Shown here: piece after piece, positions 22,013-40,976 of the stretch | Layout: the number at the start of each line of letters is the position of its first letter | How positions within the stretch are numbered: position 1 is the stretch's first letter | Origin: Candidatus Omnitrophota bacterium | Lineage (GTDB): Bacteria > Omnitrophota > Gorgyraeia > Duberdicusellales > 4484-171 | NCBI GenBank assembly: GCA_021735655.1 | Contig: JAIPGM010000004.1 | Location: 95,874 to 159,873 of the forward strand | Length of the DNA stretch: 64,000 nt | Direction of reading: 5' to 3' | The notes under the pieces: generated by a model | Database searches by the model: none | What the model was told of the DNA's origin: nothing | What the model saw: the letters and a program-made list of their open reading frames with translations, nothing else | Program-made: the position numbers and the translations under genes

Positions 22013-22059
22013 TAGGCTTCATCAGAAAAAACATTGTGCAAAATGTTATGATTTTACTT

Positions 22060-22557
22060 TTACTCATTCTTCTCCTTTTTTCCGTTCTTTATTACCTTTT
22101 CTAATGCGTGGATAACTTTATCGACTTGAATGTTTATATCACGCTTTATTAGATGCTCCCATAAACGGACCACAATCCACCCTTTTCTTTTTAAAAATAG
22201 AGTGGTTTTTTTGTCTCGCAATCGATTCTTTTCTATTTTTGTTTTCCAAAAATCATTCTTTAATAAATGCTTCCAGCGAGAATACTGCCAACCATGCCAA
22301 AAATCGCTATCTAAGAAAACACACAGTTTAGCTCTTTTAAAAACGATATCTGGCTTCCCTTTTATAAGTTGCACATTTCTCTCAAATGTTTTCCTTGTTC
22401 GTTTTTTTAATGCGCGAATGAAATCTTCCTCAAATTTTGTGTCTCGAGACCGTATTTTTGACATTACAACAGAACGGTGTTCTTTTGTGATTTTGTCTGA
22501 TTCTCGTTTTTTCTTAAAATTGCGACCTAAATAGTTTTTGATTCTTCTCTTTGTCAT
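22060..22557 (-). CDS. vsr: Very-short-patch-repair endonuclease
   Basis: 165 aa. SKIRSRDTKFEEDF...GKPDIVFKRAKLCVFLDSDFWHGW matches the Vsr catalytic core. Adjacent to an m5C methyltransferase. Confidence 0.75.
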   Translation of the reverse strand: MTKRRIKNYLGRNFKKKRESDKITKEHRSVVMSKIRSRDTKFEEDFIRALKKRTRKTFERNVQLIKGKPDIVFKRAKLCVFLDSDFWHGWQYSRWKHLLKNDFWKTKIEKNRLRDKKTTLFLKRKGWIVVRLWEHLIKRDINIQVDKVIHALEKVIKNGKKEKNE

Positions 22558-22560
22558 AGC

Positions 22561-23736
22561 CTAATAAGACAATCCATATTTCTTCATTGCTTCTTTTAGT
22601 AATGGCGGTGATTTCCGTTCACCAAAAGCGTCCCCTAAAAGATGTACTATAAATTTCTCAGTTTTAGGTAAAATAACACTTGAATGCTGAACGACTAAAC
22701 TCACCCATTTATCAACCAGTTCTTTTGTTCTTATATATTCCTTTAATTCCCAATAGTGCCTGACCTCGTCAACCGTGAGTTTTGAAACAATTTCAATAAT
22801 TTCTTTAGCGTTTCTTTGGAGGTAATAAAATATCTTTGGAATCTTATGGTACGCCACGTCATTAATAACAATTGTCTGTTGTCCTCCAGCGGTAAATCTA
22901 TCTCTAAGCGAAGAATCCACCACACCATGACGAGCCGCTAACCAAGTCGCGAAATTTTGATATTTTGTTTGACTCCTACCAAATATCTCAGGGAATCTTG
23001 CCATAGCTTCATTTCTAAAGCGATTCTGTTTATCTTCATGAAGATTGCCCCACAAAGTAACTGTGGGACTTAGCATGGCGTCAACTTCATCCCCGGGATC
23101 CATCCACCAAGGTTCTTCTCCTTTTTTAGAAATTTTGCGAAAATAACGAACAACTTCCTTAATCGGATTATCTTGTTTCCGCAAAATGTTATATTCCGTT
23201 CCCATCTTATCAAATATGGTTTTCCCAGAATCAAGCTCCATATCTATCAAATATCTCGGGGAATGGGTTACAGCGATGTCGTAAAGACATTCTTCATATC
23301 TTCGAAACTTAAACTTTGGTGGAGCGACCAGTCTTCCAAAAAATAGATATATTCTTTCAACGCCTTCAACTCTTGTTGTTTCAAGGACACTATTGCCAGT
23401 ACTACGCCAATGATCTTGTTTGGTAATTTTTACTTCCACTCCGTAATATCGTTTCGCCACTATATCTGGAAATTTATGCCCTGATATAAGTTGTATCGTT
23501 CCTTCAAATTCAGTTTTTTTCGATGAAATCAACATAGAACCGTAGACTTCTTTTTCAAAATCTGATGAAGATAATCCGCAATAGCGCTTTGGAGCTTTTG
23601 ACGCTTCATCTTGAATGGTTTTAATCCCACCGTTCAATAAAGTCTCAAAAGAATTCTCACTCGCTTCTGTCCTTTTAGATATAATCATTTTAATCCTTTC
23701 TTGAAAATCTTTGGCCATAGCTCCTGTAGACGCCAC
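22561..23736 (-). CDS. Putative type II restriction endonuclease
   Basis: 391 aa. HKFPDIV...YGVEVKITK is a PD-(D/E)xK-like motif. Overlaps the methyltransferase by 52 nt, the classic RM gene arrangement. Confidence 0.5.
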   Translation of the reverse strand: MASTGAMAKDFQERIKMIISKRTEASENSFETLLNGGIKTIQDEASKAPKRYCGLSSSDFEKEVYGSMLISSKKTEFEGTIQLISGHKFPDIVAKRYYGVEVKITKQDHWRSTGNSVLETTRVEGVERIYLFFGRLVAPPKFKFRRYEECLYDIAVTHSPRYLIDMELDSGKTIFDKMGTEYNILRKQDNPIKEVVRYFRKISKKGEEPWWMDPGDEVDAMLSPTVTLWGNLHEDKQNRFRNEAMARFPEIFGRSQTKYQNFATWLAARHGVVDSSLRDRFTAGGQQTIVINDVAYHKIPKIFYYLQRNAKEIIEIVSKLTVDEVRHYWELKEYIRTKELVDKWVSLVVQHSSVILPKTEKFIVHLLGDAFGERKSPPLLKEAMKKYGLSY

Positions 23737-24974
23737 GCCACATTAAAAGCTAATAATGGTGGCACAGCGTTGCCAATCACTCTGTAACCATCTGATGGGC
23801 TCAAAGCAAACTCCGATCCTAAAACCGAAGCGCTTCTCGTAAAAGCGAAATCATCGGGAAAGGTTTGAATTCTGGCGCATTCTCGAACTGTCAACCGTCG
23901 CTCTTTTAGCCCCATATCAATTTCTTTAAGATTTTTTCCGCCATGCTCTTTCGACAAACGTCTAAATTCTATATTCCCATGATGTTCAGCTCGAATCGTT
24001 GGCCCTAATCCCATCACATTAACTTCACTTTGTCCTTGGCAATGTTTTCCATACCACTTAGCTCTTGAATAAGCTTTTTGAGAGGGGTCATTCGAGAATT
24101 CCGGTTCTTTCAGTCCAACAAAAGCGTCTTTAACTTTTACAAAGGGCAATAAGTGTGAATCTTCACTAATTTCACCATGCGTTCTTGGGGGATATGGGTT
24201 AAAGCACGAATCATCACTCAATAAGGTTAATTGTTCAATAGCTTTTCTAGTCAGAGCATCCCTTCTAAAACCGATAAAAACTACCCTCTCTCTAGTCTGG
24301 GGGGCACCATAATCCTGCGCTCTTAATACTTTAGCGTTAACAACCAAATAACCATTATCTCCAATAGATCCAAAATCATTTTCGATAATCTTCTTAGCGT
24401 CGGATAAAGATACTAGCCCCTTGACATTTTCGGCAAGAAATACTTTTGGCCGGACAATTTCAATAACAGCTCTCATCCACATGTAAAGCTTCCCCCGATT
24501 TTCTTCTGATGGTTCCTTGCCGTTTAACAATCCTCCATGATGTGCCTTGTGAGAATTAAAACCTTTGCGTTTTCCCGCCACGCTAAAATCTTGACACGGG
24601 AAACCACCAGTAACCAAATCAACTCTCGGAAAGACTCTCGCCGCTCCTGAAGAATGCTTCCTAACTAAATCAACAATACTTTCAGAATGAAAAAGCGATC
24701 CATTTTTTCCTTCTTTATCAAAATAAGGAACCCAACCAGCTTTAGCCGATTGTAAAATATCATTGGCAAAAACTGTTTTAAACACTGTTTTTGGCAATCG
24801 AACCCAATGCTTATTTATAGGATTTTTTAACCAATCTGGATGAATTATTGGATTAATGGATTTTTTAAGAACGATGAAATCACCTTCAAAACCTAAATCC
24901 ATACCACCGCAACCAGAGAACAATGAAAGTACTTTCAACGTTTGTGTCTTTTTTTTCATTTTTAGTCCTATCAA
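23685..24974 (-). CDS. DNA (cytosine-5)-methyltransferase
   Basis: 429 aa. Motif I LSLFSGCGGMDLGF. Motif IV GFPCQDFSVAGKRKG. Motif VI ENVKGLV. Motif VIII QTRERVVFIGF. Motif X GNAVPPLLA. Confidence 0.9.
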   Translation of the reverse strand: MIGLKMKKKTQTLKVLSLFSGCGGMDLGFEGDFIVLKKSINPIIHPDWLKNPINKHWVRLPKTVFKTVFANDILQSAKAGWVPYFDKEGKNGSLFHSESIVDLVRKHSSGAARVFPRVDLVTGGFPCQDFSVAGKRKGFNSHKAHHGGLLNGKEPSEENRGKLYMWMRAVIEIVRPKVFLAENVKGLVSLSDAKKIIENDFGSIGDNGYLVVNAKVLRAQDYGAPQTRERVVFIGFRRDALTRKAIEQLTLLSDDSCFNPYPPRTHGEISEDSHLLPFVKVKDAFVGLKEPEFSNDPSQKAYSRAKWYGKHCQGQSEVNVMGLGPTIRAEHHGNIEFRRLSKEHGGKNLKEIDMGLKERRLTVRECARIQTFPDDFAFTRSASVLGSEFALSPSDGYRVIGNAVPPLLAFNVAWRLQELWPKIFKKGLK

Positions 24975-25693
24975 TTTTCCATAAACCCTTCATCAGCAAA
25001 GCTGAAGAAAGAATTATCACCAATTATTACATGATCCAAAAAGTCAATTTTTATAGACTTGCTCACATTTAGAATATCCTTTGTTAAATTTCGATCGTCA
25101 ATACTTGGATCACAATTCCCAGAAGGATGATTGTGAGCGCAAATAAATGAACTAGAGCAACACTCTAGAGCCTTATGAAATATTTCCCTAACAATAGGAT
25201 TAACTTCATCGACTGTTCCTTTTCCAAGCTCAACGATATTTATCAATCGACTCTTGGTGTCAAGATAAAGAACCTTAAATTCTTCTTTCTTTAAATCACG
25301 CATGCGAGGCGATAATAAGGTAAACACATCTTTGGCATTTTCAATCCTAATTTTTTTGGGAATGATTTTCCCTTCATGGAATCTTTTGCCAATTTCTATC
25401 GATGCTCGTATTTGAGCTATCTTAGCGACACCAAGACCTTTAAACTCTTTCCAATCCAAATCCCCAGCCTGACTTAATTCCCGGAAAGAACCAAACTTTT
25501 TAATTACAGAACGAGCTAAATCCAAAGCGCTCTGTCCTCGTATCCCAATACGAAGAATAATTGCTAATAATTCGGCATCGCTTAAAGATTCTTCTCCTTT
25601 TTTTAAAAGCTTCTCTCTCGGTCGGTCATCCACCGGCCAAGCGCTTATTCCTGATGGTTTTCTAGTCTTTGTTTTTCCCAATTTTATACCCAA
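24971..25693 (-). CDS. RadC-like JAB-domain protein
   Basis: 240 aa. N-terminal HhH region LSDAELLAIILRIG. HNHPSGNCDPSIDDRNLT is the JAMM motif. The ORF track uses a TTG start. The N-terminus contains in-frame 12-bp tandem repeats. Confidence 0.8.
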   Translation of the reverse strand: MGIKLGKTKTRKPSGISAWPVDDRPREKLLKKGEESLSDAELLAIILRIGIRGQSALDLARSVIKKFGSFRELSQAGDLDWKEFKGLGVAKIAQIRASIEIGKRFHEGKIIPKKIRIENAKDVFTLLSPRMRDLKKEEFKVLYLDTKSRLINIVELGKGTVDEVNPIVREIFHKALECCSSSFICAHNHPSGNCDPSIDDRNLTKDILNVSKSIKIDFLDHVIIGDNSFFSFADEGFMEN

Positions 25694-25746
25694 TTTAATC
25701 CCTCGTTTAATCCCTCATTTAATCCCTCACGCACGCCAAATCATAC

Positions 25747-25947
25747 CTATTCCAGTACATCCCAATGTCCGCTTTTTCTCGAGCCAATACGCTTCAAAAA
25801 ACCTTCTTCCTTTAGCTTGGCAATGGCATTTTCCACTGTTCGCTGTGATAGCTGTATCTGATCCGCAATTTCATACGTTTTTATAAAAGAATCTGCCTCA
25901 ATGGCGTTTAAAACTTTCTCCGCGTTTATTCCGCACTTCTTCCGCAT
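25747..25947 (-). CDS. Winged-helix DNA-binding protein
   Basis: 66 aa. YEIADQIQLSQRTVENAIAKLKEEGFLKR is a wHTH. The start lies within three 11-bp tandem repeats. Confidence 0.5.
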   Translation of the reverse strand: MRKKCGINAEKVLNAIEADSFIKTYEIADQIQLSQRTVENAIAKLKEEGFLKRIGSRKSGHWDVLE

Positions 25948-25983
25948 TTCTTCCGCATTTTCTACCGCAATTACACTCTCATT

Positions 25984-27084
25984 TTAAACTATCCTTTTCT
26001 TGCTTCTTTTTTTTGAAGGTTTTTTACTGATTTGCGATTCCACCAAAAAACGCTCACGTTTTAACTCTTTGACAAGCTCGTCTTCCGTTGGCAAATATAA
26101 CTTATACCTCGAGGCAAATATCTGTTTGTTATCTTTAGGCAACGTGTACCTGACAACAGCGTCTTTTTTATCTTCGCACAAAATAAGTCCAACTGTTGGA
26201 TTGTCATCTTTCTGTTTCATGGATCGGTCGTAATAGTTTACATACATCTGCATTTGTCCGATATCCTGATGAACTAGTTTCCCAATTTTTAAATCGATAA
26301 GGACAAAGCATTTCAAGATAGTATTGTAAAAAACCAGATCAACATAAAAATGATCGCCATCCAATGTAATGCGTTTCTGTCTGCCTACAAATGTAAATCC
26401 TTTTCCAAGCTCAAGCAAAAACCTGGAAAGGTTATCAATAAGCGCCTGTTCCAGCTTGCTCTCGTATAATTTTGAGTGAGGAGATAATCCGGTAAATTCT
26501 AAAACATAAGGATCTTTTATCATATCTTCATATGTTGCCAGCTCTTGTCCTTTGCGAGCCAGCCTCATAAGACCTTTTTTGTCTTTGCTTAAAGCAAGCC
26601 GCTCATAAAGAAGTGTTCCTTTTTGTCGTTCAAGTTCGCGAGCTGACCAATTATTAGCGACGCACTCCGCCTCATAAAAGGATCTTGCATCAGGCTTGTC
26701 GACTCGCATCAATATTCGATAATGCGTCCAGCTCAATTCTTGACGCACTGCGTCAAGAATTGGATATGCTAAATAAAACTTTCGCATATTCGTCAAATTC
26801 GTAAAATCAAAGCCCTTGCCAAATTCATCTGAAAGTCGATGGGACAAATCTTCTATTGTTTTCTTTCCATATCCTGCGCGCTTCTTGCCTTTCTGTTCTT
26901 CTTCGACAATTTCTTTTCCGATATGCCAATAGGCTAAAACCATCTCCGTATTAACAGCGCGGGCGATATTGTTTCTTGCGTTCTCAATAATTGCGCAGAT
27001 TCGTTCGTACGCATTTGTTTTATTATTAACTCTCTTTTTGGCGATACTTCGAGAGCTTTTTTGAATGGCTTTTTTTCGTGGCAT
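25984..27084 (-). CDS. YhcG/DUF1016-family PDDEXK nuclease
   Basis: 366 aa. LSWTHYRILMRV, GFTFVGRQKRITLDGDHFYVDLVFYNTILKCFVLIDLKIGK and VGLILCEDK match the YhcG conserved blocks. Confidence 0.75.
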   Translation of the reverse strand: MPRKKAIQKSSRSIAKKRVNNKTNAYERICAIIENARNNIARAVNTEMVLAYWHIGKEIVEEEQKGKKRAGYGKKTIEDLSHRLSDEFGKGFDFTNLTNMRKFYLAYPILDAVRQELSWTHYRILMRVDKPDARSFYEAECVANNWSARELERQKGTLLYERLALSKDKKGLMRLARKGQELATYEDMIKDPYVLEFTGLSPHSKLYESKLEQALIDNLSRFLLELGKGFTFVGRQKRITLDGDHFYVDLVFYNTILKCFVLIDLKIGKLVHQDIGQMQMYVNYYDRSMKQKDDNPTVGLILCEDKKDAVVRYTLPKDNKQIFASRYKLYLPTEDELVKELKRERFLVESQISKKPSKKRSKKRIV

Positions 27085-27085
27085 C

Positions 27086-27262
27086 TTAGCAATTCCTCCT
27101 GCTCTTAATAAATTCTTCTAAATCTTCCGGCTTGATCTTCCACTGACCGATCTTCACGGCTTTAATTTCTTTTTTGCGTATTAAGTCTCGAATCCATTCA
27201 TCGGTAAGTCCGAGTTTTTCGGCTACTTCAGGTACAGTGAGATACTCTTTTATGTTTTCCAT
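27086..27262 (-). CDS. Excisionase-family HTH_17 small protein (not in the ORF track; below its size cutoff)
   Basis: Reverse-strand ATG at 27262 gives MENIKEYLTVPEVAEKLGLTDEWIRDLIRKKEIKAVKIGQWKIKPEDLEEFIKSRRNC, 58 aa. Same HTH_17 pattern as 11455..11694. Confidence 0.55.
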   Translation of the reverse strand: MENIKEYLTVPEVAEKLGLTDEWIRDLIRKKEIKAVKIGQWKIKPEDLEEFIKSRRNC

Positions 27263-27752
27263 AATTTTACACCTCGTGGAGTTATTGACTATGTATTACC
27301 ATATTCAAAACAGCATTAGTCCCTATTTTAGTACTATTAAACCCAATGGTCAAGCAAAATGCTCATAAACACTGCAATTACGATAATGCCGGATTATGCC
27401 CCGGATTTATAATCCCGCACCTCTGATATATCATTTCCCACGGCTAAAGACTCAAAATAATCGACTTTTGCGGAAATCTAATCAATTTCGGCGTATCTTG
27501 AAGCTGAAATGACCCAAAATAACTCCTTATTATCATTTAAGCCAGTAAATGATAATATGGCATTTTCTTATTATCACTTCCTTATAAGATTTGTGATGAA
27601 AATGGGCTCCGGATCAATTATCCTCACATCCGTTGTAACAGCCAAAACACGACAACACGACATTTTTCATGTCGTATAATGTCGTGTTTTTCAGGCTATT
27701 TTCGCCTTAAAAATTAGCTCTAAATATCCATAACACACATAAATACAAGCAT

Positions 27753-28007
27753 TTACGCAATATTAGGCTTTTTGCCATCACCAGACAATAGGACATGACA
27801 TCGATTTTTTATTTTAAGGTCACTGACAGACTGCCCCTCGCCCGACCCTCGGCAAACCCCCATGGTAAGGACCCATCTTTTTATGGCTTCCGGAGTTATA
27901 TTCAGCTTAAGCTTCACCTCATACCCATCAGGTGATTTTATCGTCACATAGGTCCAGAAGCCCGGCTTCCATTTCTTCTTTTTACGCTTATATCTGTACC
28001 ATCCCAT
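27753..28007 (-). CDS. Hypothetical basic protein
   Basis: 84 aa. Lys/Arg-rich N-terminus. No recognisable domain. Confidence 0.3.
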   Translation of the reverse strand: MGWYRYKRKKKKWKPGFWTYVTIKSPDGYEVKLKLNITPEAIKRWVLTMGVCRGSGEGQSVSDLKIKNRCHVLLSGDGKKPNIA

Positions 28008-28151
28008 AGATCACGTCCTTTTAAAATGCGTGCGGAGAAGGGCGTCAAGGAGGTTTACCAAAACAACGCCCCTTATCAGTCGCATTTAACTGATAAAACC
28101 TCTGCGATGGAACAGTTAAGCATCGCATACAGTTTCCCCGCATTATTTGTT

Positions 28152-28826
28152 TTAATCAATAACCGCTTCCTTTTTTTCCACAGGTTGAGGTCGATATCTT
28201 TTCATGATCTGGCGAATTTCTTTCTCAAGATCAAAGTTTGAAACCCAGTTGCTTTTACTTCTGATTTCTTCCTCAACATCAGCCACAGTAGGACGGTTTA
28301 ACCCAGCGATAACCCTGTCTTTTTCAGCATGAAATACATCATACGCCTCAGTGCCTAAGCTCGGGCTAAATGCCGGATATGATTCCAGATCACGCTTTGT
28401 CACCGCAGGGTGTCCATGTAAAGCAAAAGCCAATCCAAAAAGTTTTCCTTTTGCTTTCCAGAGATCAAGTTTTGCCTTATCACGGTCACGATTAAGGCGT
28501 TTTCTGATCTCTATAACTTTCTGAGATTCATCATCTTTCAAAGTGGTGAAAGCATCCTCAAGTTTTTCTTTTAGCTTCTCAAGGCTTTCGGACACCACGT
28601 CGAGATTGATATTGCATTCCTCCAAAGCTGAATCCGCTTCTTTTACAGCATTTGGATTAGCTTTTTCACCGCACATAATCCTGCTTCTGATTTCTTTTGC
28701 TTTTTCTTTAGCGTCTTGTTTTTCTTTTTCACATTGCTTCTGCTTCTCCTCAAGAGCTACGATCTGCTCGGCGATCTCATCTGGCGTGCTTTTGTCTTTT
28801 AACACATTTAAAAAATTAAGCTTCAT
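28152..28826 (-). CDS. Hypothetical coiled-coil protein
   Basis: 224 aa. E/K-rich heptad-like N-terminal half. Confidence 0.4.
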   Translation of the reverse strand: MKLNFLNVLKDKSTPDEIAEQIVALEEKQKQCEKEKQDAKEKAKEIRSRIMCGEKANPNAVKEADSALEECNINLDVVSESLEKLKEKLEDAFTTLKDDESQKVIEIRKRLNRDRDKAKLDLWKAKGKLFGLAFALHGHPAVTKRDLESYPAFSPSLGTEAYDVFHAEKDRVIAGLNRPTVADVEEEIRSKSNWVSNFDLEKEIRQIMKRYRPQPVEKKEAVID

Positions 28827-28830
28827 TGTC

Positions 28831-29244
28831 TTATCTCCTTTTTTTAGGTGCGGTTATTGATAATGCTTCTTCAAACGGACAATCCGTTTCGTTCTGATAC
28901 TTTCGAGCACGCCAAACATGATCAAGCTGTTCTGCGATTACCACACTGCCTGAATCTGCTTCTTTTTCCGGTGCGGTCTTACTTAAAGCGTCAGTTAACG
29001 TGCATTCAAATTTCTCACGGTACTCATACGCTTTCTTTAAGTGGTCAAGACGGACATCGCCTTCACTCGCCATGCTATCGTTCTTCTTAGCAGTCGCCTG
29101 CAAGGCTTCTGTGAGTGAACAGTTGTGCCTCATCATATAAAGATTAGCGTCAATTAAATGAACGAGTTGTTTTTCTTCAGTTGACCCCGGAACATACCGG
29201 CTGTTCATCCCGCTTATTGTGTTTAATAAATGAGCTTGTTTCAT
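28831..29244 (-). CDS. Hypothetical protein with three internal repeats
   Basis: 137 aa. Repeats: CSLTEALQATAKK, CTLTDALSKTAPEK, CPFEEALSITAPKK. Confidence 0.4.
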   Translation of the reverse strand: MKQAHLLNTISGMNSRYVPGSTEEKQLVHLIDANLYMMRHNCSLTEALQATAKKNDSMASEGDVRLDHLKKAYEYREKFECTLTDALSKTAPEKEADSGSVVIAEQLDHVWRARKYQNETDCPFEEALSITAPKKRR

Positions 29245-29343
29245 TTTTTATTCCTCCTGTTTTTTTGTTTATCCACACTAAAAATATCCTTAATTTTCAA
29301 TCCATAATTACATCATTTTCACCCCCTTTTCTGATGATCGTGA

Positions 29344-29634
29344 GCGTTGTGAACGTCGATTCCACTACTTTCTAAATCCCTCTTTACGCCTCTTTTACAC
29401 CCCTTTTTTGTGACTTTCCTGACCCTTTCCCTTATATTTTTCTTTTTTTAGAACAGAGGGGTTTTTACGTTCACAATGTTCACAAACCACACAAATCCTT
29501 GTAGATTAAGAAGTTAACCACTGAGCGTAGGTGTGACCGTAGACTCTGGACGTTCACAACGTTCACACTTTTCAGTACGGTCTCGGGTCCTCACGGTCAC
29601 AACGCTCACCGACGTTCACACCGACGCTCACACC
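29344..29634. repeat. Cluster of at least 8 copies of ACG(T/C)TCACA in both orientations (iteron/operator-like)
   Basis: gcgttgtgaacgtcg; acgttcacaatgttcacaaaccacaca; gacgttcacaacgttcacac; cggtcacaacgctcaccgacgttcacaccgacgctcacacc. Lies between the primase 3' end and the 28831..29244 gene start. Confidence 0.6.
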
Positions 29635-31935
29635 ATTTTCAAAGAGCGAATTGCCCTTAGTTTTCCGTAAAATAAACAGCTTCCTGCCGGTACCGGCTTC
29701 ACGTTTATTACTACGTAAAATATCAATCCCCACACTCCTCATAACAGGTGCGATACGCATAAGTTCAGAAGCTAAAGCCCTAGCATTAGCGGGAATTGTT
29801 TTATCAAATCCTGTCTCAGGCTGAACACTTGAAAGAAGCGTAGTCGCAGAACCTGCCCATTCACCACCGTTAAATTCCACAAGATAAGTAAGCCTCTGTG
29901 CAAGCGTGCTTTCTTCGGCAGTATCTTCCCATTTATGATCAACCGACTCCTGATACTTCTGTAAAAACTCATCCTGTGAAAAGCCTAAATATCCCGACAA
30001 GCCTGAACCCCATTTAGCGAAATCCGACATCCTGAAACGTTCATGCCCTGATACTCCGTCAACAATAGCCATAGCTTTTGAAAGGGCGGTAAAGAATCCG
30101 CCGAGAATGCCCGGCAAAGAAGCCCTCCACTCATCAGCGATTTGTTTTTCAGGTCTTGTTTCTTTGAGAATAGGAATATCGAATATTATTGATCTATCTA
30201 AAAGGTCGGGTCGGCAGATGGAACTGCCTATGCCGTTTAAAACAAAACATCTGCGGTACGTCCTTATAAATTCTTCGTCATTAGTGTAGAGTGACCGTTT
30301 CATGTCGCCTTCACCGGTTACCGCACGACATAAAAAATCACTGAACCATTCAGATACACGAGAGAGATTGTCGAAGTTATTCACCCAATGCTTATCAGCG
30401 ATCATCTGAGCCTGTTCTAAGTCTTTGGGAGCCGAAATTGACATTACTTTTGACGGATCACATAAACTTTTTATTAATCGGGAATTATTTGACTTACCAG
30501 TGCCTTGCTCGCCGAGTTGGACAGGTATAACATGGGGAATATCAGGAATGAAAAACGTAGCTATAACCGTCATAAAAAGGCAGGCGTCATCTTTATTAAT
30601 ATTACAGAAGTCTAAAAGTTTTATCGGATCAAATCCTTTAACAGGCATGACCTGCTCAGACTGGTGAGGGTAACGCTTAAATATCGGCGGGAGAAAAACA
30701 ATTTCCCAGCCGTCTTTTGTAATCACAACTCCACGCCAGTCTTTAGTCGTAAGGTCGTAATAAATCGCTCCGTTATACCAGCCTACACGGTTATACAGCT
30801 CAATCTGCCGACCGCCTTCGCATTGTGCCTCAACCTGAATACGTGCCTGTTTTAACGCCTCATTGCCCGGAGGATGACCGAAATCCCTGCGGTACCGCAT
30901 TGCAAAACAGTTCCTGAAACGTGAACTGCTCGTCTGGCATACTTCAAAGTGTTTATCATAAGGAAGGACAACATAAGGATTGCCCTGCTGATCGGAAAAA
31001 TATTCCGTGATCATTTCTTCACAGTCCCGGGTTATTATCTCGCCTTGAGTAAGCTTCTTTTGCTTAGGAGTGTTTGAAGCAGTAAATTCGTCCTTAGTAT
31101 CCTGAATCGCTTTATCAATTGCCGATTCTCCGTATGTCTTGCCATCGCTAAAATGCTTCTCATCCCACTTTGATCGCATAAGACCAGAGTGACGGAACAA
31201 AGAATCCATCCCCACAGAATCTTTGCCAGTCCAAAAGGCGAGTTTATTGCATAAAGCAAGATCCGCTTCTGATTGGGAAGGATAATCATCCTGCCATCTG
31301 CCTTCATATAATTTAAAGAAACTATCTGCGTCTTTGCTTTTCCTGATCCTGTTAAGGAGAGATTTTACTTTCTTATTCTCCGCGTCCAGATTTTCAAGAT
31401 GTTCATACAAGGCTTTGAGCTTGTCGGAACATTCGACAATCTTGTCATTACAGCCCTTAACAATGTCTCCGGTCGTAATAAGAAATCTATTCCCTGAATA
31501 CATCTCCACATTAAACGAGCTGAACTTGCGGTCTCTGGGAAGCGTGCCTTTGCAGATAGTGTGAAGTCCTGTTCCGCTGACTGAATATTCTGTGTAACTG
31601 TTAAGCTCGGATATTATTTTTTGGACGAAAGGCGTAATAATTCCGTCTTTAATACAGTTATCAAAATCTATTCCCGCATGTGGCGATCTAAGGGCAAAAC
31701 CGATAGCATCAAATTTCAAGATTTCAGCTTTGGATAAAACCACATCCAACGCACACCATGTCTTTGGATTATTTGATTGGGCATGTCCGCCGGTAAGCGC
31801 ATTGATAGGTTCTTTCCGTGGCTTTTTACCTTTTTGAGGAACAAACCGGAAGCCCACCCATATAGGCAAGTCTTTCATTTCCTGCGGTATATTTTCCACA
31901 TACCATTTCTTCTCTTTTCTTCTCTCTTTCTTCAT
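29572..31935 (-). CDS. DNA primase-polymerase (prim-pol N-terminal domain) fused to a P-loop SF3-helicase-like domain (P4/D5-type primase-helicase)
   Basis: 787 aa. Prim-pol-like N-terminus. Walker A GEQGTGKSNNS mid-protein. The last ~20 codons read through the repeat cluster, so the real stop may be earlier. Confidence 0.6.
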   Translation of the reverse strand: MKKERRKEKKWYVENIPQEMKDLPIWVGFRFVPQKGKKPRKEPINALTGGHAQSNNPKTWCALDVVLSKAEILKFDAIGFALRSPHAGIDFDNCIKDGIITPFVQKIISELNSYTEYSVSGTGLHTICKGTLPRDRKFSSFNVEMYSGNRFLITTGDIVKGCNDKIVECSDKLKALYEHLENLDAENKKVKSLLNRIRKSKDADSFFKLYEGRWQDDYPSQSEADLALCNKLAFWTGKDSVGMDSLFRHSGLMRSKWDEKHFSDGKTYGESAIDKAIQDTKDEFTASNTPKQKKLTQGEIITRDCEEMITEYFSDQQGNPYVVLPYDKHFEVCQTSSSRFRNCFAMRYRRDFGHPPGNEALKQARIQVEAQCEGGRQIELYNRVGWYNGAIYYDLTTKDWRGVVITKDGWEIVFLPPIFKRYPHQSEQVMPVKGFDPIKLLDFCNINKDDACLFMTVIATFFIPDIPHVIPVQLGEQGTGKSNNSRLIKSLCDPSKVMSISAPKDLEQAQMIADKHWVNNFDNLSRVSEWFSDFLCRAVTGEGDMKRSLYTNDEEFIRTYRRCFVLNGIGSSICRPDLLDRSIIFDIPILKETRPEKQIADEWRASLPGILGGFFTALSKAMAIVDGVSGHERFRMSDFAKWGSGLSGYLGFSQDEFLQKYQESVDHKWEDTAEESTLAQRLTYLVEFNGGEWAGSATTLLSSVQPETGFDKTIPANARALASELMRIAPVMRSVGIDILRSNKREAGTGRKLFILRKTKGNSLFENGVSVGVNVGERCDREDPRPY

Positions 31936-31937
31936 TG

Positions 31938-32207
31938 TTATGCTCCGTTCTGAAATATGAAGTCTTTAACCTTCCTGTAACATTGAAATAACTGCTCCTC
32001 TTTGGAGTTATTGAAAAACTTATCCGCCAGCTTGCGTGTTTTCTCGGCATCATCGAAAAGGATTCGTTTCTGCCTGCCAACTCCCGATAAACCCTTCATG
32101 TCGCACCCCTTTGATACGAGGTACGTGGCTAAATAAATATTCCCCGCTTCAAAATAATTTTCTTCCATAATTCTTTCCTTTGCTTTTCCTGCACTAGGTA
32201 CATACAA
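31938..32207 (-). CDS. Small hypothetical protein (DUF5659-like), commonly next to mobile-element primases
   Basis: 89 aa. MEENYFEAGNIYLATYLVSKG. Directly upstream of the primase and probably co-transcribed. Confidence 0.35.
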   Translation of the reverse strand: MYVPSAGKAKERIMEENYFEAGNIYLATYLVSKGCDMKGLSGVGRQKRILFDDAEKTRKLADKFFNNSKEEQLFQCYRKVKDFIFQNGA

Positions 32208-32217
32208 CTTTTTTCCT

Positions 32218-32995
32218 TAAAATGTTGCACCCATTTTCAGATATACGACGTACCCCTGAAAACTGTCGGGATTTATTTCCCTATGGGGTATATACGACGA
32301 CTTTTCGCATTTTGTCCCACTGCAAGATGTTTTTACCCCTCACTACGTACATACAGATTTTTTTCAAAAAGTGTCCCCCCTTAGAGCGTATATACGTAAA
32401 AAAACTTTAAAATGTTGCAGGCTAAACTAAAATTTTTCATAATCAGCCATCCTCAAAGCGTATATACGGAAAAATTTCTCAAAGTGTCTCAGCTTTTTTA
32501 CATTTTTTTTAAAATCTGCCCTCCAGAGCATACATACGTATAAATTTCCCAAAATGTTGCATGCTAAATTAAAATTCTTGCCCCCACCGGGTACATACAA
32601 CTTTTTTTGCCAAAGTGTCTCACTAAAAATCAAAATATCTGTCCCATAGCGTATATTCCCCGCATTTCTCAAAAGTGTCAGAAATATTTTCTTCCCACAG
32701 CGTACATACCGGGTTTTTCCAAAAAGTGTCGGGCTTATTTTGCTTCTATTCATGTATTCAGGATTTTTTCGAAAAGTGTCGGATTTTTCTAACCCCCTAT
32801 TAGTACATTCCGGATTTTTCTACAAAGTGTCGGAACTTTTTTTATTTTTCCTGCAACACTTTCAAGGAAAACGTCGTATATACGTATTAGGGTGGGACAC
32901 TTTCGCCTAAAAAACTGTATATACGTAGTAGGGAGGTAATTTTCTTGAAGAAATTTCCGACACTTTCGGCATTTTTCCGGAATATACATATATGG
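32218..32995. repeat. Iteron-like array: about 11 direct and 3 inverted copies of a bipartite motif (C)GTATATAC(G) ... ~10-12 nt ... AAAGTGTC, period ~50-70 bp
   Basis: Direct units start near 32241, 32290, 32348, 32389, 32460, 32530, 32592, 32651, 32703, 32753 and 32803. Inverted units lie at 32853..32991. CGTATATACG is itself a palindrome. Confidence 0.8.
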
Positions 32996-33059
32996 AGGGT
33001 ATTAGCTTGACTTGTCCCGAAGGGTGTTATAGGGGTGTTGTATTAAGGAGGTTTTAAAA

Positions 33060-34715
33060 ATGAGCGCAGAGAAGAAAAGAAAAAAGTTCGTGATTTACAC
33101 ACGCTGTTCAACTGATGATCAGGCAAAGGGTGATTTCACCACGCTTGACGCTCAGGCTCACCACTGCCGGAATATGCTTGATGCATTCGGCTACGAAATG
33201 GCTGATTTTGGGGATAAAGGCATCATTAATGATGACGGCTATTCAGGCAAAGATCTGAACCGCCCCGGCATTCAAGCTATTCTTAAAGACATCCAATCCA
33301 AGAAGTCGTTTGACGGTATTATATTCTTCAGGCTTGATAGGCTGACGCGCAATCCTCGTGACCTTTACGGCATGATCGACACGTTTAAGGCTGAGGATAT
33401 CGACTTTTTATCAGTGAGAGAAAATCTGGACAGCTCAACAGCCATAGGCAGGGTTATGATCGGCATAATCGGCTTATTGTCGGCATTTGAGCGTGAACTT
33501 ACAGGTGAACGCGTCCGTGCTTCGGCTATCGCCAGAGCAAGGCAGGGCAAATGGGTCGGCGGCAAACCGCCTTTTGGTTATAGGTTGGTTAAAACCGGGG
33601 AACAATTATCGAATGGCCGTAGACCCAGCCGAATAGTTATCGATACAGCTATCGCGCCTTATATCCATATGATCTTTAAACTGGCCGCTGATAATAAAAC
33701 TCTCTCGGAAATCGGAAATGAACTCCTCAAAAGAAACGTTCCCACGTTCAAAAGTAAAGTATGGTGCAAACAAACAATATCGAAAATCATCAAAAACCCT
33801 TTTTATAAAGGAATGATTTCTTACGCGGGGGAAATAAGCAAAGGATTACATGAAGCGATCGTAAATGAAGCCCTTTGGAGAAAAGCGAATAAAATTATAT
33901 CCGCTAATATCCCCGGGCATAGATTTCTGAAAACCACGCATGATTATAAACACCTGCTAAAAGGTATTCTTCGCTGTGGATCATGCGGAAGCTATTATAT
34001 CTCCACACACGCTAAAGGAAATATGGGGAATAAATTCTATTATTACGAATGTAGCAAGACACGCCAAAAGCTCGGATGTAACGCGAAAAGAATATCATCG
34101 ACCGGATTTGATCAAGCTGTCATTAAATTCCTAAACAGAGCCTCAGAGGATCAGGATATCATTATCAACGCCATAGGAAACGCCATTAAAGATTCCTCCG
34201 CTAATCTGCATAAATACGATAAAGACATCCGTGAAATAAAAAAGAAAATTGACTCAGTAAAAGAGTCAACAGATAAACTGATCGATCTGGCTATGAATAG
34301 CGTTATCCCCAAGGGACGCACATATTCAGAAAAAATGGACGCTCTTGAGTTAGAGTTAACTTTGCTTGAGGATAAACTTTCGAAGAAGGAGGCTAATAAA
34401 AAAGCCGCTGAAATGTCGGTACACTCCAACGAATACCTGCACACAAACCTTAAGATCGCTATGCAATACCTCGAGCAAGCCCCGCCAGACGCCCAAATCG
34501 CCCTTTTAAAGGTGCTTATCAAAGAAATAAGGCTCTATGACGATCATGTTAAGCTGGAAATGTATATCGGCGAGCCTGACGGCGGGATTGTGCGGGATCT
34601 AATCCTGAAGGAACCCCAAAAACAGCAAACTCCGCCCCCTTTTGAGGGACAGAGTTCGACTGGTTGTCAACTATGGCGGGGTCGATGGGATTCGAACCCA
34701 CGATCACCTGCGTGA
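33060..34715 (+). CDS. Large serine recombinase (integrase)
   Basis: 551 aa. Resolvase catalytic N-terminus FVIYTRCSTDDQ. Recombinase domain. Zn-ribbon CGSCGSYY...YYECS...GCNAKR. Coiled coil. The 3' end overlaps tRNA-Asp by 39 nt. Confidence 0.85.
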   Translation: MSAEKKRKKFVIYTRCSTDDQAKGDFTTLDAQAHHCRNMLDAFGYEMADFGDKGIINDDGYSGKDLNRPGIQAILKDIQSKKSFDGIIFFRLDRLTRNPRDLYGMIDTFKAEDIDFLSVRENLDSSTAIGRVMIGIIGLLSAFERELTGERVRASAIARARQGKWVGGKPPFGYRLVKTGEQLSNGRRPSRIVIDTAIAPYIHMIFKLAADNKTLSEIGNELLKRNVPTFKSKVWCKQTISKIIKNPFYKGMISYAGEISKGLHEAIVNEALWRKANKIISANIPGHRFLKTTHDYKHLLKGILRCGSCGSYYISTHAKGNMGNKFYYYECSKTRQKLGCNAKRISSTGFDQAVIKFLNRASEDQDIIINAIGNAIKDSSANLHKYDKDIREIKKKIDSVKESTDKLIDLAMNSVIPKGRTYSEKMDALELELTLLEDKLSKKEANKKAAEMSVHSNEYLHTNLKIAMQYLEQAPPDAQIALLKVLIKEIRLYDDHVKLEMYIGEPDGGIVRDLILKEPQKQQTPPPFEGQSSTGCQLWRGRWDSNPRSPA

Positions 34716-34752
34716 CAGGCAGGGGACTTAAGCCAGGCTAATCGACGACCCC
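34677..34752 (-). tRNA. tRNA-Asp (GTC)
   Basis: Reverse strand GGGGTCGTCGATTAGCCTGGCTTAAGTCCCCTGCCTGTCACGCAGGTGATCGTGGGTTCGAATCCCATCGACCCCG. 7-bp acceptor stem. Anticodon loop CTGTCAC. TTCGAAT T-loop. G73 discriminator. Confidence 0.85.
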
Positions 34753-37558: not shown

Positions 37559-38386
37559 TTAACGTATCTTTTTTATGATTCTTTCTAGGTCTTTTAAATT
37601 ATAATACTCAATAACTACCCTACCACGATTATTGCGTCGATTAAATATTTTAACTTTTGTCCCTAATACTTTTTGCAGCCGCTCCTCCACTTCAAGGCTA
37701 AAGGGATCCTGCGAATGCTTGCGATGAGAAGTAACTCTTACTTTTTTTTCTATTTCCCGAACCGAAAGCCCACCTTCTAGAATTTGCTGAAAAAGCTTTT
37801 CCTGTTTTTTTGGATTTTCGACCCCCAAAATTGATCTAGCTTGAGTTCGACTAATTGCTCCTGTTTCTAACGCTCGCTTTATTTTTGATGGTAACTTTAA
37901 TAGACGTAAAGCATTCACAACCGTGGTTTTATTTTTACCAACAAACTTAGCAATATCTTCTAGAGAAAAACTATACTCATCCATTAAACGCTTGAAAGCG
38001 CTTGCCTCTTCAACCGGATTTAAATTTTTCCGTTGTAGGTTTTCCACAATTGCCAAAACAAAAGCCTCTTTGTCGTCTACATCTTTAATTATAGTTGGTA
38101 TCTCTTTGAGCCCCAATGAGTTAGCTGCTTGGTACCGTCGTTCACCGGCCACAACTTCATAGCTATCATCCCCTTTCTTTCTAACCACGATCGGCTGAAT
38201 AAATCCTTTTTCTTTTATTGACGCCGCGAGTTCTTCCAGTTCTTCAGGATCTATTAATTTTCTCGGCTGGAATAGCGACGGTTTAATTTTATCAATTGGT
38301 AAATGAGTAAACTCTCGAGATAAAACATAATTAGCTTTCTTAGGAATAAGGGCATCAAGACCTCTGCCTAAAACTTTTCTTTCCAT
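37559..38386 (-). CDS. parB: Chromosome partitioning protein ParB/Spo0J
   Basis: 275 aa. ParB N-terminal box IQPIVVRK...EVVAGERRYQAA. HTH region. Confidence 0.85.
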   Translation of the reverse strand: MERKVLGRGLDALIPKKANYVLSREFTHLPIDKIKPSLFQPRKLIDPEELEELAASIKEKGFIQPIVVRKKGDDSYEVVAGERRYQAANSLGLKEIPTIIKDVDDKEAFVLAIVENLQRKNLNPVEEASAFKRLMDEYSFSLEDIAKFVGKNKTTVVNALRLLKLPSKIKRALETGAISRTQARSILGVENPKKQEKLFQQILEGGLSVREIEKKVRVTSHRKHSQDPFSLEVEERLQKVLGTKVKIFNRRNNRGRVVIEYYNLKDLERIIKKIR

Positions 38387-38389
38387 CGA

Positions 38390-39181
38390 TTAACTCCTCT
38401 CTTTGGCTAATTGCCCAGACGTAATATTATTTTTTATAACCTCTTGGCTCACTTTAAGATATGACTGTGAGCCTACACAAGTTTTATCGTAAGACGAAAT
38501 TGGTTTACCAAAGCTAGGTGCTTCAGCAAGCTTTACATTGCGCGGGACAATAACAGCGAAAACTTTTTGTTGAAAATATCTTCTTACCTCCTCTATCACC
38601 TGCAAGGTAAGCCGAGTTCTGAAATCAGCCATGGTCAAGAGAATGCCTTCTATCTCTAGATTGGGATTCAGACGCTTTTGAACTAACTCCACCGTATTGA
38701 CCAATTTAGAAACTCCTTCTAAGGCATAATATTCACATTGTATAGGAACAATAATGCTATCAGAAGCAGTTAGAATGTTGACTGTGAGCAACCCCAACGA
38801 CGGCGGAGCATCGATAACAATAAAAGAAAAACTGTCTTTTATTGGCTCCAAAGCCTCGCGCAAGAGAAGTTCGCGCCCAGGGATATTAACTAACTCGATC
38901 TCTCCCCCGCTTAGCGAAATATTTGAAGGGATAATATCTAATTTATTATACTGAGTGGGGTAGATGCTTTCTTCTATTGGCACCTTCCCAGAAATAACAT
39001 CATAAATAGAATTTTTTCCCTCGGCTTCAACTCCAACCCCCGAAGTAGCATTACCCTGGGGGTCCATATCAATCAAAAGAGTCTTTTGATCTTCTAAACC
39101 AAGATAAGCACTAAGATTAATAGCGGTAGTGGTCTTAGCAGTTCCGCCCTTCTGATTACAAATTCCGATTATTTTACCCAT
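38390..39181 (-). CDS. parA: Chromosome partitioning ATPase ParA/Soj
   Basis: 263 aa. Deviant Walker A ICNQKGGTAKTTTAINLS. Confidence 0.9.
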   Translation of the reverse strand: MGKIIGICNQKGGTAKTTTAINLSAYLGLEDQKTLLIDMDPQGNATSGVGVEAEGKNSIYDVISGKVPIEESIYPTQYNKLDIIPSNISLSGGEIELVNIPGRELLLREALEPIKDSFSFIVIDAPPSLGLLTVNILTASDSIIVPIQCEYYALEGVSKLVNTVELVQKRLNPNLEIEGILLTMADFRTRLTLQVIEEVRRYFQQKVFAVIVPRNVKLAEAPSFGKPISSYDKTCVGSQSYLKVSQEVIKNNITSGQLAKERS

Positions 39182-39191
39182 ATCAAATTTT

Positions 39192-39493
39192 ACGTTTTCA
39201 CGTGGAAACGCTTGAGCTAACCCTATCTACGATAGTAAGATCGAGAAAATAAAATGATATTACTATTTTAAATAGCTGATCTCCTACTGTCAAGGCTTTT
39301 GTTATATTTTTGCTTTTTAGCTAATTGACTTTGCGTTTTCACGTGGAAACGAATTATCTATCTACCTGCTTTTTCAAACAAGCGTTTCCACGTGGAAACA
39401 ATAAAGGCTATTTTTATGTCATATTGGATTATGAATGCTGGTTCTTTAAAACCCTTTATTTTAAAGAGTTTTTTGCGTTTTCACGTGGAAACG
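39192..39493. promoter_or_regulatory. Four parS-like palindromic sites, GCGTTT(T/C)CACGTGGAAACG
   Basis: Copies at 39192..39210, 39333..39351, 39383..39400 (the perfect palindrome GTTTCCACGTGGAAAC) and 39475..39493. Resembles canonical parS tGTTTCACGTGAAACa. Immediately upstream of parA and ~2 kb from dnaA. Confidence 0.6.
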
Positions 39494-39509
39494 GCAAGAA
39501 AAATGGTGA

Positions 39510-40976
39510 TTAGCTAGCAAGAGAACATTTCAAGGGAGAGGTTTTAGAAATTCTCAATTGGTAAGCAAAGGTGAGTAAATTTTGTACAAACCAATACAGC
39601 ACTAATGCTGAAGGAAAATTATAAAAAATAACTCCCAAAAATACTGAAAAGAATAAACCCATTGATTTCTGTTCTGAGGAGCTAGACTTAGAAGTAGTAA
39701 CTTTCTGCTGTATCAACCCAACGATCATTATAAGAATCGGTAATATGTTAAGATAGTTTCCCAAAAATGGTATTTTAAAAGGTAAAGCGAAAGCTTTGTC
39801 CGGCAATGATAAGTCTTGAATCCAAAGGAAGGAAGCTCCTTTTAACTCAACAAAACGAAACAAAACCTGGTAAAGAGCAATAAAAATTGGAAACTGGAAA
39901 AATAACGGCAAGCATCCGCCAATAGGATTAACTTTGTGTTCTTTAAATAACGCTACTTGTTCTTTACTAAATTTTTGCGGATTATCTTTATACTTAACCT
40001 TCAAGGCTTCTAGCTCTGGTTGGATATCTTGCATTTTGCGCATGGCCTTTGTGCTTTTCATAGTAAAAGGGAATAAGCATCCATAGATAAACACAGCAAA
40101 GCCAATAATACTTAAACCCCAGTTTTTAGTCACCGAATAAAAAAAGTAGAGGAGTTTAATCATCATCATCCCGATAGCATGGAAGAACCCATAGTAAATA
40201 ATTCCTTGCAAGTCATACTCCTGCAACGACTTACTTGTCTGTGGCCCAACGTACATTGAAATTTGAGATTCTGGTGAAAGAAGTTGCAACTGGCCTTGCC
40301 CTGATTGGCCAACAGCCCACTCTATATCATAAGAACCCCTAAACAAAGAAAAACAATAATACCGCTCTCGACTGCCGGCAAAGGAGACATTGCGATAGGC
40401 TGCTGCCTTTAATTTTTTAGGATTAGTTCGCTTGATGCTCTGATCATGACTGTAAAAAATCTCCTGGTACCTTTGGTCTAACATACTGTCCTGCAGTATA
40501 TTATAAAATAAAACTATTGAAGATGGAGGAGTTGGCCCCAGCTTAATATCGAGCCTGTAGCGATCAAAAACAAATTCTTTTTCTGCCCCGTCCTGAGTTC
40601 TAAAAACAAGTGATCTTGGGCCGACCCAGGCTTCATATTTTTTGTCCTCATCACCAGGGGCAAAGCCAATCTTTCGAAAAGGTAAAACATTACTAGGATT
40701 ATCTATTGATATAGCCTCTATGTAACCTCCTGTGGTAGAATATGTTATGAATAAATTCTCAAACTGAGCCTGGGGCAATTCTTCAAGGGACGTTTGAACT
40801 TCAAGGTCAGTTTTTGGGTTTCTTTTATCTATTGGTATGTTTTCCGGCTCTTCGGTGGAGGCGATCTTTTGTTCCTGAGTTTCTGATAAAGGAGCTGGTG
40901 GAGGAGTCATAAAGCGACCCCAAACAAGAAGAAAAATTAAAGTTAAAAAAAATGCTAAAAAAAGCCGTTTTTCCAT
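39510..40976 (-). CDS. yidC: Membrane protein insertase YidC
   Basis: 488 aa. N-terminal TM, periplasmic domain, C-terminal 5-TM insertase core. Conserved synteny with yidD/rpmH. Confidence 0.85.
   Translation of the reverse strand: MEKRLFLAFFLTLIFLLVWGRFMTPPPAPLSETQEQKIASTEEPENIPIDKRNPKTDLEVQTSLEELPQAQFENLFITYSTTGGYIEAISIDNPSNVLPFRKIGFAPGDEDKKYEAWVGPRSLVFRTQDGAEKEFVFDRYRLDIKLGPTPPSSIVLFYNILQDSMLDQRYQEIFYSHDQSIKRTNPKKLKAAAYRNVSFAGSRERYYCFSLFRGSYDIEWAVGQSGQGQLQLLSPESQISMYVGPQTSKSLQEYDLQGIIYYGFFHAIGMMMIKLLYFFYSVTKNWGLSIIGFAVFIYGCLFPFTMKSTKAMRKMQDIQPELEALKVKYKDNPQKFSKEQVALFKEHKVNPIGGCLPLFFQFPIFIALYQVLFRFVELKGASFLWIQDLSLPDKAFALPFKIPFLGNYLNILPILIMIVGLIQQKVTTSKSSSSEQKSMGLFFSVFLGVIFYNFPSALVLYWFVQNLLTFAYQLRISKTSPLKCSLAS

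Follow-up and report, generated by a model that had tools for sequence, protein, structure and literature searches.

A putative primase-helicase replication cassette on a tRNA-Asp island of an Omnitrophota bacterium

Analyses of a 64-kb stretch of DNA from a Candidatus Omnitrophota bacterium (contig JAIPGM010000004.1 of assembly GCA_021735655.1; the whole stretch is called the window and all coordinates are window positions) indicated that the region around the gene rep (29572-31935, minus strand) is probably the replication cassette of a tRNA-Asp island moved by a large serine recombinase, and that Rep, a 787-aa primase-polymerase/helicase, is likely to self-replicate the island once it is excised. 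The preliminary description of this DNA had claimed a replication module made of a prim-pol protein with a superfamily 3 (SF3)-type helicase and a small partner; this claim is now backed by sequence, by predicted fold, by conserved catalytic and helix-bundle domain (HBD) residues and by synteny, and the 787-aa open reading frame (ORF) and the 89-aa ORF at 31938-32207 (minus strand) are present as described. Since rep is intact and an iteron origin of conserved geometry, like that of the Staphylococcus aureus pathogenicity islands (SaPIs), lies directly 3' of it, the sequence strongly suggests that the island can replicate after excision. Related loci are cited by L numbers (such as L095) where needed.

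Architecture of the Rep protein

Rep was characterised from its ORF, from Pfam, PDB and PHROG searches and from its predicted fold. It carries an archaeo-eukaryotic primase (AEP) PrimPol domain at aa ~15-200 (31336-31893, minus strand), followed by the HBD at aa 221-284 (31084-31275, minus strand), which in Pfam matched PF22763 (NrS-1 polymerase HBD) with 96.3 bits against a cut-off of 27.9. In phmmer searches of the PDB, aa 15-287 aligned to 7OLA, the primase-helicase of SaPI5 (4.6e-28), and to structures of the NrS-1 primase (~5e-27), matches that strengthened to ~1e-49 with the family profile, and the top PHROG was DNA primase (5.6e-75). Alignment to 7RR3 and 7OLA revealed that the DxD motif (IDFDN) and the SxSGxGLH loop (SVSGTGLH) are kept and that the residues matching NrS-1 R249, K251 and Y261 are conserved (LMRSKWD...KTYG); mutagenesis of NrS-1 showed that these three residues and the S108 loop matter for priming (PMC8718748). 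The prim-pol-like N-terminus proposed earlier is borne out by the PF22763, PDB and PHROG matches, and this half of Rep is identified by its sequence as an NrS-1/SaPI5-type primase-polymerase. The families that had been suggested for checking, PF09250, D5_N and Primase_C, gave no match in Rep at E<=0.01 in the domain search, and neither did DUF5906 or Pox_D5.

For the remainder of the protein (aa ~290-787), neither Pfam nor NCBIfam nor the PDB gave a significant sequence match, the top hit being VapE-like at E 0.075; PADLOC and NCBIfam returned nothing for Rep, and when the helicase half was compared with the PDB by sequence and by profile, generic P-loop matches alone came up. The helicase half is identified by predicted fold only. 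An AlphaFold2 model of the C-terminal half, built with 33 homologues, reached a predicted local distance difference test score (pLDDT) of 86.2 and a predicted template modelling score (pTM) of 0.82, and Foldseek matched the model to African swine fever virus (ASFV) PrimPol, the NrS-1 C-terminal region (CTR), monkeypox virus (MPXV) E5/D5 and SaPI5 at 1e-7 to 1e-10. The predicted fold of the region is of the D5 type, and in the model an N-tier precedes an ATPase tier and a helical region, after which come a winged helix of beta-alpha-alpha-alpha-beta-beta topology (model residues 403-469) and a disordered tail, so that Rep has the N-tier, ATPase tier and C-terminal winged helix of a SaPI-type SF3 helicase. 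On the protein and on the minus strand these correspond to a D5_N-like N-tier at aa ~297-460 (30556-31047), the SF3 ATPase at aa ~470-586 (30178-30528), the helical and winged-helix C-terminal domain at aa ~596-758 (29662-30150) and a disordered acidic tail ending in RPY at aa 762-787 (29575-29652), the last encoded by iterons that lie inside the ORF. The Walker A motif GEQGTGKS is encoded where it had been placed, at 30490-30513 (aa 475-482, minus strand), and is invariant across the 33 homologues together with the hhhhDN strand, TGEGD..R (B'), LNG (motif C) and DLLDR (the arginine finger).

The C-terminal module of Rep occurs elsewhere alone, fused to PF09250 or fused to zf-CHC2 plus PF09250, while the N-terminus of Rep is elsewhere fused to a canonical D5_N/DUF5906/Pox_D5 helicase, for example in P0099. 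The helicase assignment is supported by this exchange, since the same module and the canonical helicase interchange behind a shared N-terminus. When L001-L004 and L080 were compared with the window, the helicase half and the DUF5659 protein encoded upstream of rep were 94-98% identical, the PrimPol half 69-85% and the recombinase 76%; this mosaic sequence pattern points to recombination at the domain boundary.

An acidic stretch with a C-terminal RPF or RPY was seen in 86 of the 120 homologues listed, including ones with a canonical D5-type helicase. The tip of Rep, DREDPRPY (aa 780-787, 29575-29598), resembles the C-terminal DDDIPF peptide of single-stranded DNA-binding protein (SSB) and the acidic tail of T7 gp4, and proteins of the host replisome may dock on it.

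Two repeat arrays flanking rep

The two repeat arrays reported in the preliminary description proved real and non-random: the word TGTGAVCG occurs nine times in the window against 1.82 expected, with eight of the nine copies within 29348-29632 (285 nt), and units of the upstream array occur 12 times against 0.07 expected. The TGTGAACG cluster, a putative origin of about ten TGTGAnCG iterons (29339-29632, minus strand), spans the 3' end of rep and extends from -60 to +233 relative to the rep stop. In gene orientation, three forward iterons lie inside the last 60 nt of the ORF (29594-29632; -60, -48 and -29 from the stop), a forward pair just past the stop (29551-29567; +5 and +14), a reverse iteron at 29532-29539 (+36), another forward pair at 29468-29483 (+88 and +97) and a reverse pair at 29339-29355 (the +220 copy plus a degenerate neighbour). 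The opposed pairs enclose a purine-rich spacer of 111 nt (29357-29467) with an A/T tract at ~29430-29455. This is the layout of a SaPI ori, in which 6-12 iterons lie directly downstream of rep, at least two per side in opposite directions around a central region, and are bound by a self-loading Rep through its C-terminal winged helix (PMC9371898). Tandem Repeats Finder picked up only the 9- and 12-nt iteron pairs, and no Rfam family was found in either array.

The same iteron pattern was present in 24 of 25 related loci with helicases 59-98% identical, L013, with scattered cores only, being the exception. In these loci forward iterons stand at about -83 to -29 and at +4/+14, reverse ones at +35/+47, forward ones again at +88/+97 and reverse ones at +200 to +220, and the triplet 3' of the TGTGA core is lineage-specific (ACG, GCA, GGA or AGA). 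Distant relatives (26-45% identity) carry different iteron words at the equivalent place, arranged in 9-nt-spaced pairs and inverted groups: ATGACGC in L036 and L057, CTACACC (11 copies) in L054 and CGTCAGC (12 copies) in L093. Comparison of L095 with the window revealed a recombinase 97%, an HTH_17 protein 95% and a DUF5659 protein 92% identical and the same upstream array, together with a helicase only 64% identical; the L095 iterons are TGTGAGCA, and its winged-helix signature reads AKWLST..MRN..GRR against ARALAS..MRS..GRK in the window. At the sequence level this module swap fits a cognate Rep-ori pair and is suggestive, as support rather than proof. The invariant GTGA of the iterons is also the recognition motif of the NrS-1 primase, for which 5'-GTGA/GTGG is efficient (PMC8718748), and by analogy the iterons may double as priming sites.

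On the other side of rep lies the gene of the small partner (31938-32168, minus strand), whose stop codon is only 2 nt before the rep start codon, so the two are probably co-transcribed. The DUF5659-like protein described previously is present as an ORF, though its length of 89 aa is probably too great and its family score falls just below threshold (PF18903, 23.2 bits against a gathering cut-off of 23.6). Most homologues begin at the ATG equivalent to 32168 and are 76 aa long, with few annotated at 89, so that the TTG start at 32207 used in the ORF list is probably an over-extension; a majority of the 76-aa homologues have a precomputed PF18903 match. The protein gave no fold match in the PDB. 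The slot upstream of rep holds unrelated small proteins according to lineage: DUF5659, a 79-aa HTH_17-like protein in L005, L006 and L027 (~6925-7170), a 107-aa SpoVG-like protein in L019, L020 and L032 (~6779-7168) and a 95-aa XRE-like protein in L023.

The space between the DUF5659 and recombinase genes is occupied by an array (32198-32987) of 15-16 degenerate repeats, each ~41-72 nt long; 12 of these are strict matches. The unit reads, on the plus strand, GTAYATAC-N13 (an A/T tract)-AAAGTGTC or AAAATGTTGCA, plus a C-rich box. Two of the boxes keep a constant register of 21 nt and enclose an A- or T-tract, and the third box is G-rich in gene orientation. All 12 matches to GTAYATWC-N13-AAARTGT (at most one mismatch) in the window fall within 32198-32987. 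Twelve to thirteen units run one way (32198-32831), while three adjoining the recombinase gene are inverted (32855-32987), and inverted units are confined to loci with a divergent recombinase gene upstream. Conservation of the array extends to L001-L004, L007, L013, L014, L016, L017, L028, L031, L033, L035 and L095, independently of recombinase position, divergence (23-97%) and iteron type. DUF5659 was found in 12 of 13 array-positive loci, L013 having the array without a DUF5659 ORF; the array is absent where the partner is the HTH_17-like or the SpoVG-like protein, and a distinct DUF5659 subgroup (L008, L022, L026) pairs with another word, GGTGTCT. Since its presence tracks DUF5659 and neither the helicase nor the recombinase, we favour a control function for the array over that of an origin; by analogy we tentatively propose that the DUF5659 protein binds it and that it governs the divergent promoters of rep and the recombinase gene, a control role we regard as possible rather than likely. 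A promoter scan lent no support to sigma-70 promoters in the units (six sites against 9.1 expected, none in the array on the strand of the rep operon), and no Rfam match identified the array as a known RNA.

The array could instead be the true origin, with the TGTGAACG cluster acting as operator or terminator of the downstream operon. It is the larger of the two arrays, it has an A/T tract in each unit, and it stands directly upstream of the rep operon as in many theta plasmids; phage P4, moreover, requires two separated iteron regions, ori and crr. On the contrary, the six loci with an HTH_17-like or SpoVG-like partner lack the array and keep Rep and the TGTGA cluster, the array word is unchanged when helicase and winged helix change (L014, L033, L095), and the TGTGA cluster keeps a fixed geometry in 24 of 25 close loci, with other words at the equivalent place in distant relatives. 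We hold an origin in the upstream array to be very unlikely. Because it is present in nearly all close relatives and changes along with the helicase, the TGTGA cluster is probably the better origin candidate; the preliminary description, in labelling the upstream array as iterons, probably reversed the roles of the two, the upstream array being missing in relatives without DUF5659.

The tRNA-Asp island and its relatives

The island measures ~17.7 kb (16988-34721) and is inserted in a tRNA-Asp gene, its edges being delimited by a repeat of the 3' half of the tRNA. The target, tRNA-Asp(GTC), was found at 34674-34752 (minus strand) with ARAGORN and with the Rfam tRNA model (52.7 bits). At the left edge attL (16988-17029) is a 42-nt direct repeat of the tRNA-Asp 3' half, and the repeat match placed the attR core within the tRNA gene at 34680-34721; the two differ by 3 mismatches (92.9% identity over 42 nt, E 8e-12, blastn-short).

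The recombinase (551 aa, 33060-34715, plus strand) is oriented outward, into tRNA-Asp, and has Pfam Resolvase, Recombinase and Zn_ribbon_recom domains, each above its cut-off, which is the architecture of a large serine recombinase. Its last ~14 codons (...WRGRWDSNPRSPA) are encoded by the tRNA-Asp 3' half, and the same overlap with the tRNA is present in L003, L013 and L095; the C-terminus may thus differ between the integrated and excised states. The nearly identical recombinase of L095 (L095 1-1718 against window 33060-34752) adjoins tRNA-Ser(GGA) and not tRNA-Asp. Since nothing but the GGTTCGAATCC segment of the T-loop and the end of the element is shared between the L095 and window junctions, the recombinase may target the conserved T-arm and thereby use several tRNA genes.

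SCCmec and other staphylococcal cassette chromosome (SCC) elements also combine large serine recombinases, Ccr, with Cch helicase and primase-type genes (PDB 5DGK; PMC7581432). The recombinase of the window scored best in NCBIfam against CcrC (149.7 bits) and CcrB (127.7 bits), each with a cut-off of 900, and is not a Ccr orthologue. The Cch of SCC is MCM-like, and the insertion site of SCC is rlmH (orfX) rather than a tRNA gene.

The island adjoins the chromosomal origin region, where parB, parA and yidC (minus strand) are followed by dnaA, dnaN, gyrB and gyrA (plus strand) at 37559-49126. The cumulative GC-skew minimum lies at ~41-43 kb, at the gap upstream of dnaA (40977-41509), and attR is about 6.3 kb from the dnaA/oriC region.

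The backbone runs from the recombinase through ~0.7-0.9 kb of non-coding DNA to DUF5659, Rep, ORFs of 137, 224 and 84 aa and HTH_17, and this full order is also found in L001-L004, L014, L028 and L095. The three ORFs downstream of the putative origin, all on the minus strand, encode a protein of 137 aa (28831-29244), a 224-aa coiled-coil protein with weak Rad50/JetC-like matches (28152-28826) and a protein of 84 aa (27753-28007); they gave no significant family match in Pfam, PHROGs, NCBIfam or PADLOC and are syntenic in L001-L004, L014, L027, L028 and L095. The 58-aa HTH_17 protein (27086-27262, minus strand; PF12728 58.6 bits, PHROG excisionase families) is excisionase/AlpA-like, and its gene is kept in L003, L004, L014 and L095; from its sequence it is a candidate recombination directionality factor or regulator.

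The cargo (17030-27084, minus strand) was examined with Pfam, PADLOC and PHROGs. It comprises, all on the minus strand, Vsr (22060-22557), a type II restriction enzyme (22561-23736; PADLOC REase_II 1.6e-36), a 5-methylcytosine (m5C) methyltransferase (23685-24974), RadC (24971-25693), a 66-aa winged helix-turn-helix (wHTH) protein (25747-25947) and YhcG/DUF1016 (25984-27084), as well as five ORFs without assigned function (285, 131, 254, 436 and 197 aa). At 18431-19393 a predicted lipoprotein (131 aa, weak DUF4156, PHROG 27267) is accompanied by two small membrane or secreted ORFs. While the backbone is shared, the restriction-modification and defence cargo differs: the m5C methyltransferase, type II enzyme and Vsr of the window (22060-24974) are replaced in L095 (7593-14978) by a type I restriction-modification system with SLFN/AlbA_2, and in L098 (3316-5953) by MvaI/BcnI with N4/N6 methyltransferases and a LexA-like repressor.

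A scan of one-genome-per-species contigs yielded at least 500 matches, a number that tblastn confirmed. Among the matches listed, the closest were from Omnitrophota, including the complete genome of Ca. Velamenicoccus archaeovorus, while relatives at 32-38% identity came from Chloroflexota, Acidobacteriota, groups of the candidate phyla radiation (CPR), Clostridia and a metagenome-assembled genome (MAG) of Woesearchaeota. Of 94 related loci, 42 have a large serine recombinase no more than 6 kb away from the helicase. The relatives adjoin tRNA-Ser, tRNA-Asn or tRNA-Met, the recombinase ORF often overlapping the tRNA as in the window, and carry type I or type II restriction-modification cargo. 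Among 2.9 million IMG/VR viral contigs only 15 relatives were found, L080 with a 97% match among them.

These data bear on whether the island is a phage satellite of the phage-inducible chromosomal island (PICI)/SaPI type, whose Rep-ori would fire only on helper infection and amplify the island for packaging. Such a satellite would fit SaPI5 PriRep5 as the closest solved relative of both Rep halves, the SaPI-like layout of the ori, the relatives on viral contigs and the five cargo ORFs without assigned function. Yet no phage structural, packaging or interference genes (terS, capsid, cpm/ppi), nor any for capsid remodelling, were detected in 17030-29244 with Pfam, PHROGs and PADLOC, and no Stl-like or helper-responsive repressor was identified in the island. 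The cargo here and in the relatives is restriction-modification and defence, the 15 viral contigs stand against at least 500 matches in the genome contigs, and a serine recombinase takes the place of the tyrosine integrase of SaPIs. A satellite is in our view unlikely.

Proposed replication after excision and comparison with known replicons

From these features we infer DNA binding, unwinding, priming, episomal replication and a role for the DUF5659 protein. In the excised island Rep would serve as a self-loading initiator, helicase and primase, like SaPI5 PriRep5 and P4 alpha. Its winged helix would bind the TGTGAnCG iterons from the last 60 nt of rep to ~220 nt downstream, hexamers of the D5-type SF3 ATPase would form where the iteron pairs oppose each other and unwind the 111-nt spacer, and the NrS-1-type PrimPol/HBD would make primers. 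The host replisome, perhaps recruited via the conserved acidic RP[FY] C-terminal tip, would then extend them, while the 76-aa DUF5659 protein would bind the 15-16-unit array and so control the expression or copy number of rep and recombinase.

Several observations weigh against replication of the excised island by Rep. Searches of metagenome contigs for the exact attP and attB junctions gave 0 hits each, no circular contig (terminal overlap) occurred among 100 fetched loci, and no genes for partition or copy control of the kind that stable plasmids typically carry turned up. The Walker B position is DN and not the usual DD or DE. Where a SaPI ori has an AT-rich centre, the spacer here reaches 63% A+T, the island as a whole having 60.5%, and it contains no clear unwinding element, only a tract of ~25 nt (~29430-29455) reaching roughly 80% A+T. 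The co-variation of helicase and iterons, moreover, is confounded by physical linkage and phylogeny. Contigs of ~16-17 kb considered as possible episomes proved to be integrated copies or fragments. Elevated coverage, which had been suggested as a test for replication, is a confounded measure here, since the chromosomal oriC is ~6 kb away from the island. Stable plasmid-like maintenance and a transient replicative burst cannot be told apart on present data.

If the primase-helicase were a relic, or an enzyme of defence or damage-tolerant synthesis, the island would be simply integrative. Primase-polymerases also occur in repair and defence contexts, the island bears defence cargo, and no episomal evidence was found. 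Against this, the ORF is of full length, its catalytic motifs are invariant across the 33 homologues, the cognate iteron array keeps its geometry over large divergence, and the cassette sits in the conserved backbone beside the recombinase and not in the variable cargo. A non-replicative island is in our view very unlikely, and replication by Rep after excision remains our preferred reading.

The system resembles a SaPI/P4 Rep-ori replicon placed on a serine-recombinase tRNA island, and its helicase half is not a sequence member of those families. Rep is similar to PriRep5 of the SaPI5 Pri-Rep-ori system (PDB 7OLA; PMC9371898) in PrimPol sequence, helicase fold and ori layout; in phmmer and profile searches, however, its helicase domain showed no sequence homology to SaPI Reps, the PDB alignments covering aa 15-307 only. 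The NrS-1 enzyme is a phage replicase of the lytic type, and no iteron origin is known at its 3' end, whereas here the protein belongs to an integrated island. Iteron theta plasmids have a Rep_3/RepA (WH1-WH2) initiator gene beside iterons of 17-22 bp; no Rep_3-type protein was found in the island, whose initiator candidate is the SF3 helicase.

The alpha protein of phage P4 unites in one polypeptide a primase, a D5-type SF3 helicase and a winged-helix binder of octamer iterons, as proposed here for Rep, and P4 also has two separated repeat regions like the island. The P4 primase is not an AEP PrimPol and P4 uses a tyrosine integrase, whereas the island has a PrimPol and a serine recombinase; at ori and crr P4 repeats one and the same iteron, while the words of the island's two arrays are unrelated. 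The P4 iteron TGTTCACC would share GTTCAC with the reverse complement of TGTGAACG.

Tycheposons (bioRxiv 10.1101/2020.12.28.424599) are likewise elements of 10-20 kb integrated at tRNA genes, with a recombinase at one end, a small replication module (primase/helicase) beside it and variable cargo; their definition rests on a tyrosine recombinase specific to the lineage and a shared set of hallmark genes in marine cyanobacteria, whereas the recombinase here is a serine recombinase. PrimPol-PV1 elements (PMC5862659) can be grouped with such tRNA-targeting replicative islands as similar in layout. The Sulfolobus plasmid pRN1 (PMC2965215) has ORF56 (CopG) upstream of and co-transcribed with ORF904, a PrimPol-HBD-SF3 replicase, in the same way as is probable for DUF5659 and rep, and its small protein represses the operon, which offers a model for the proposed role of DUF5659. 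In contrast, pRN1 is without a comparable 15-16-unit array, and DUF5659 is not a ribbon-helix-helix protein.

A bolder proposal would make the DUF5659 protein and its phased tripartite array an undescribed nucleoprotein device (for copy control, handcuffing or centromere-like partition) through which the island might be maintained as a low-copy plasmid and alternate between an integrated and an episomal form, with the Rep tip mimicking the SSB C-terminus to capture the host replisome and rep-ori being a specificity module freely exchanged among Omnitrophota and many other phyla; we think it quite unlikely as a whole. The DUF5659 protein with its large phased array is nevertheless the most interesting unexplained part of the system.

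The kind of element is known, while the present version is undescribed. Since SaPI and P4 replicons share the mechanism, the practical gain is modest. Omnitrophota are nearly uncultured and their mobile elements scarcely described; primases and serine recombinases are not mentioned in a recent survey of Omnitrophota genomes, and the current annotation of the protein is 'hypothetical' because its helicase half is invisible to Pfam. With at least 500 matches from Omnitrophota to an archaeal MAG, the cassette represents a widespread replicon type, and restriction-modification and defence cargo in these bacteria travels on potentially self-replicating islands. The conserved geometry with lineage-specific iteron tails marks putative cognate Rep-ori pairs that could serve as vectors for intractable phyla and in studies of initiator specificity.

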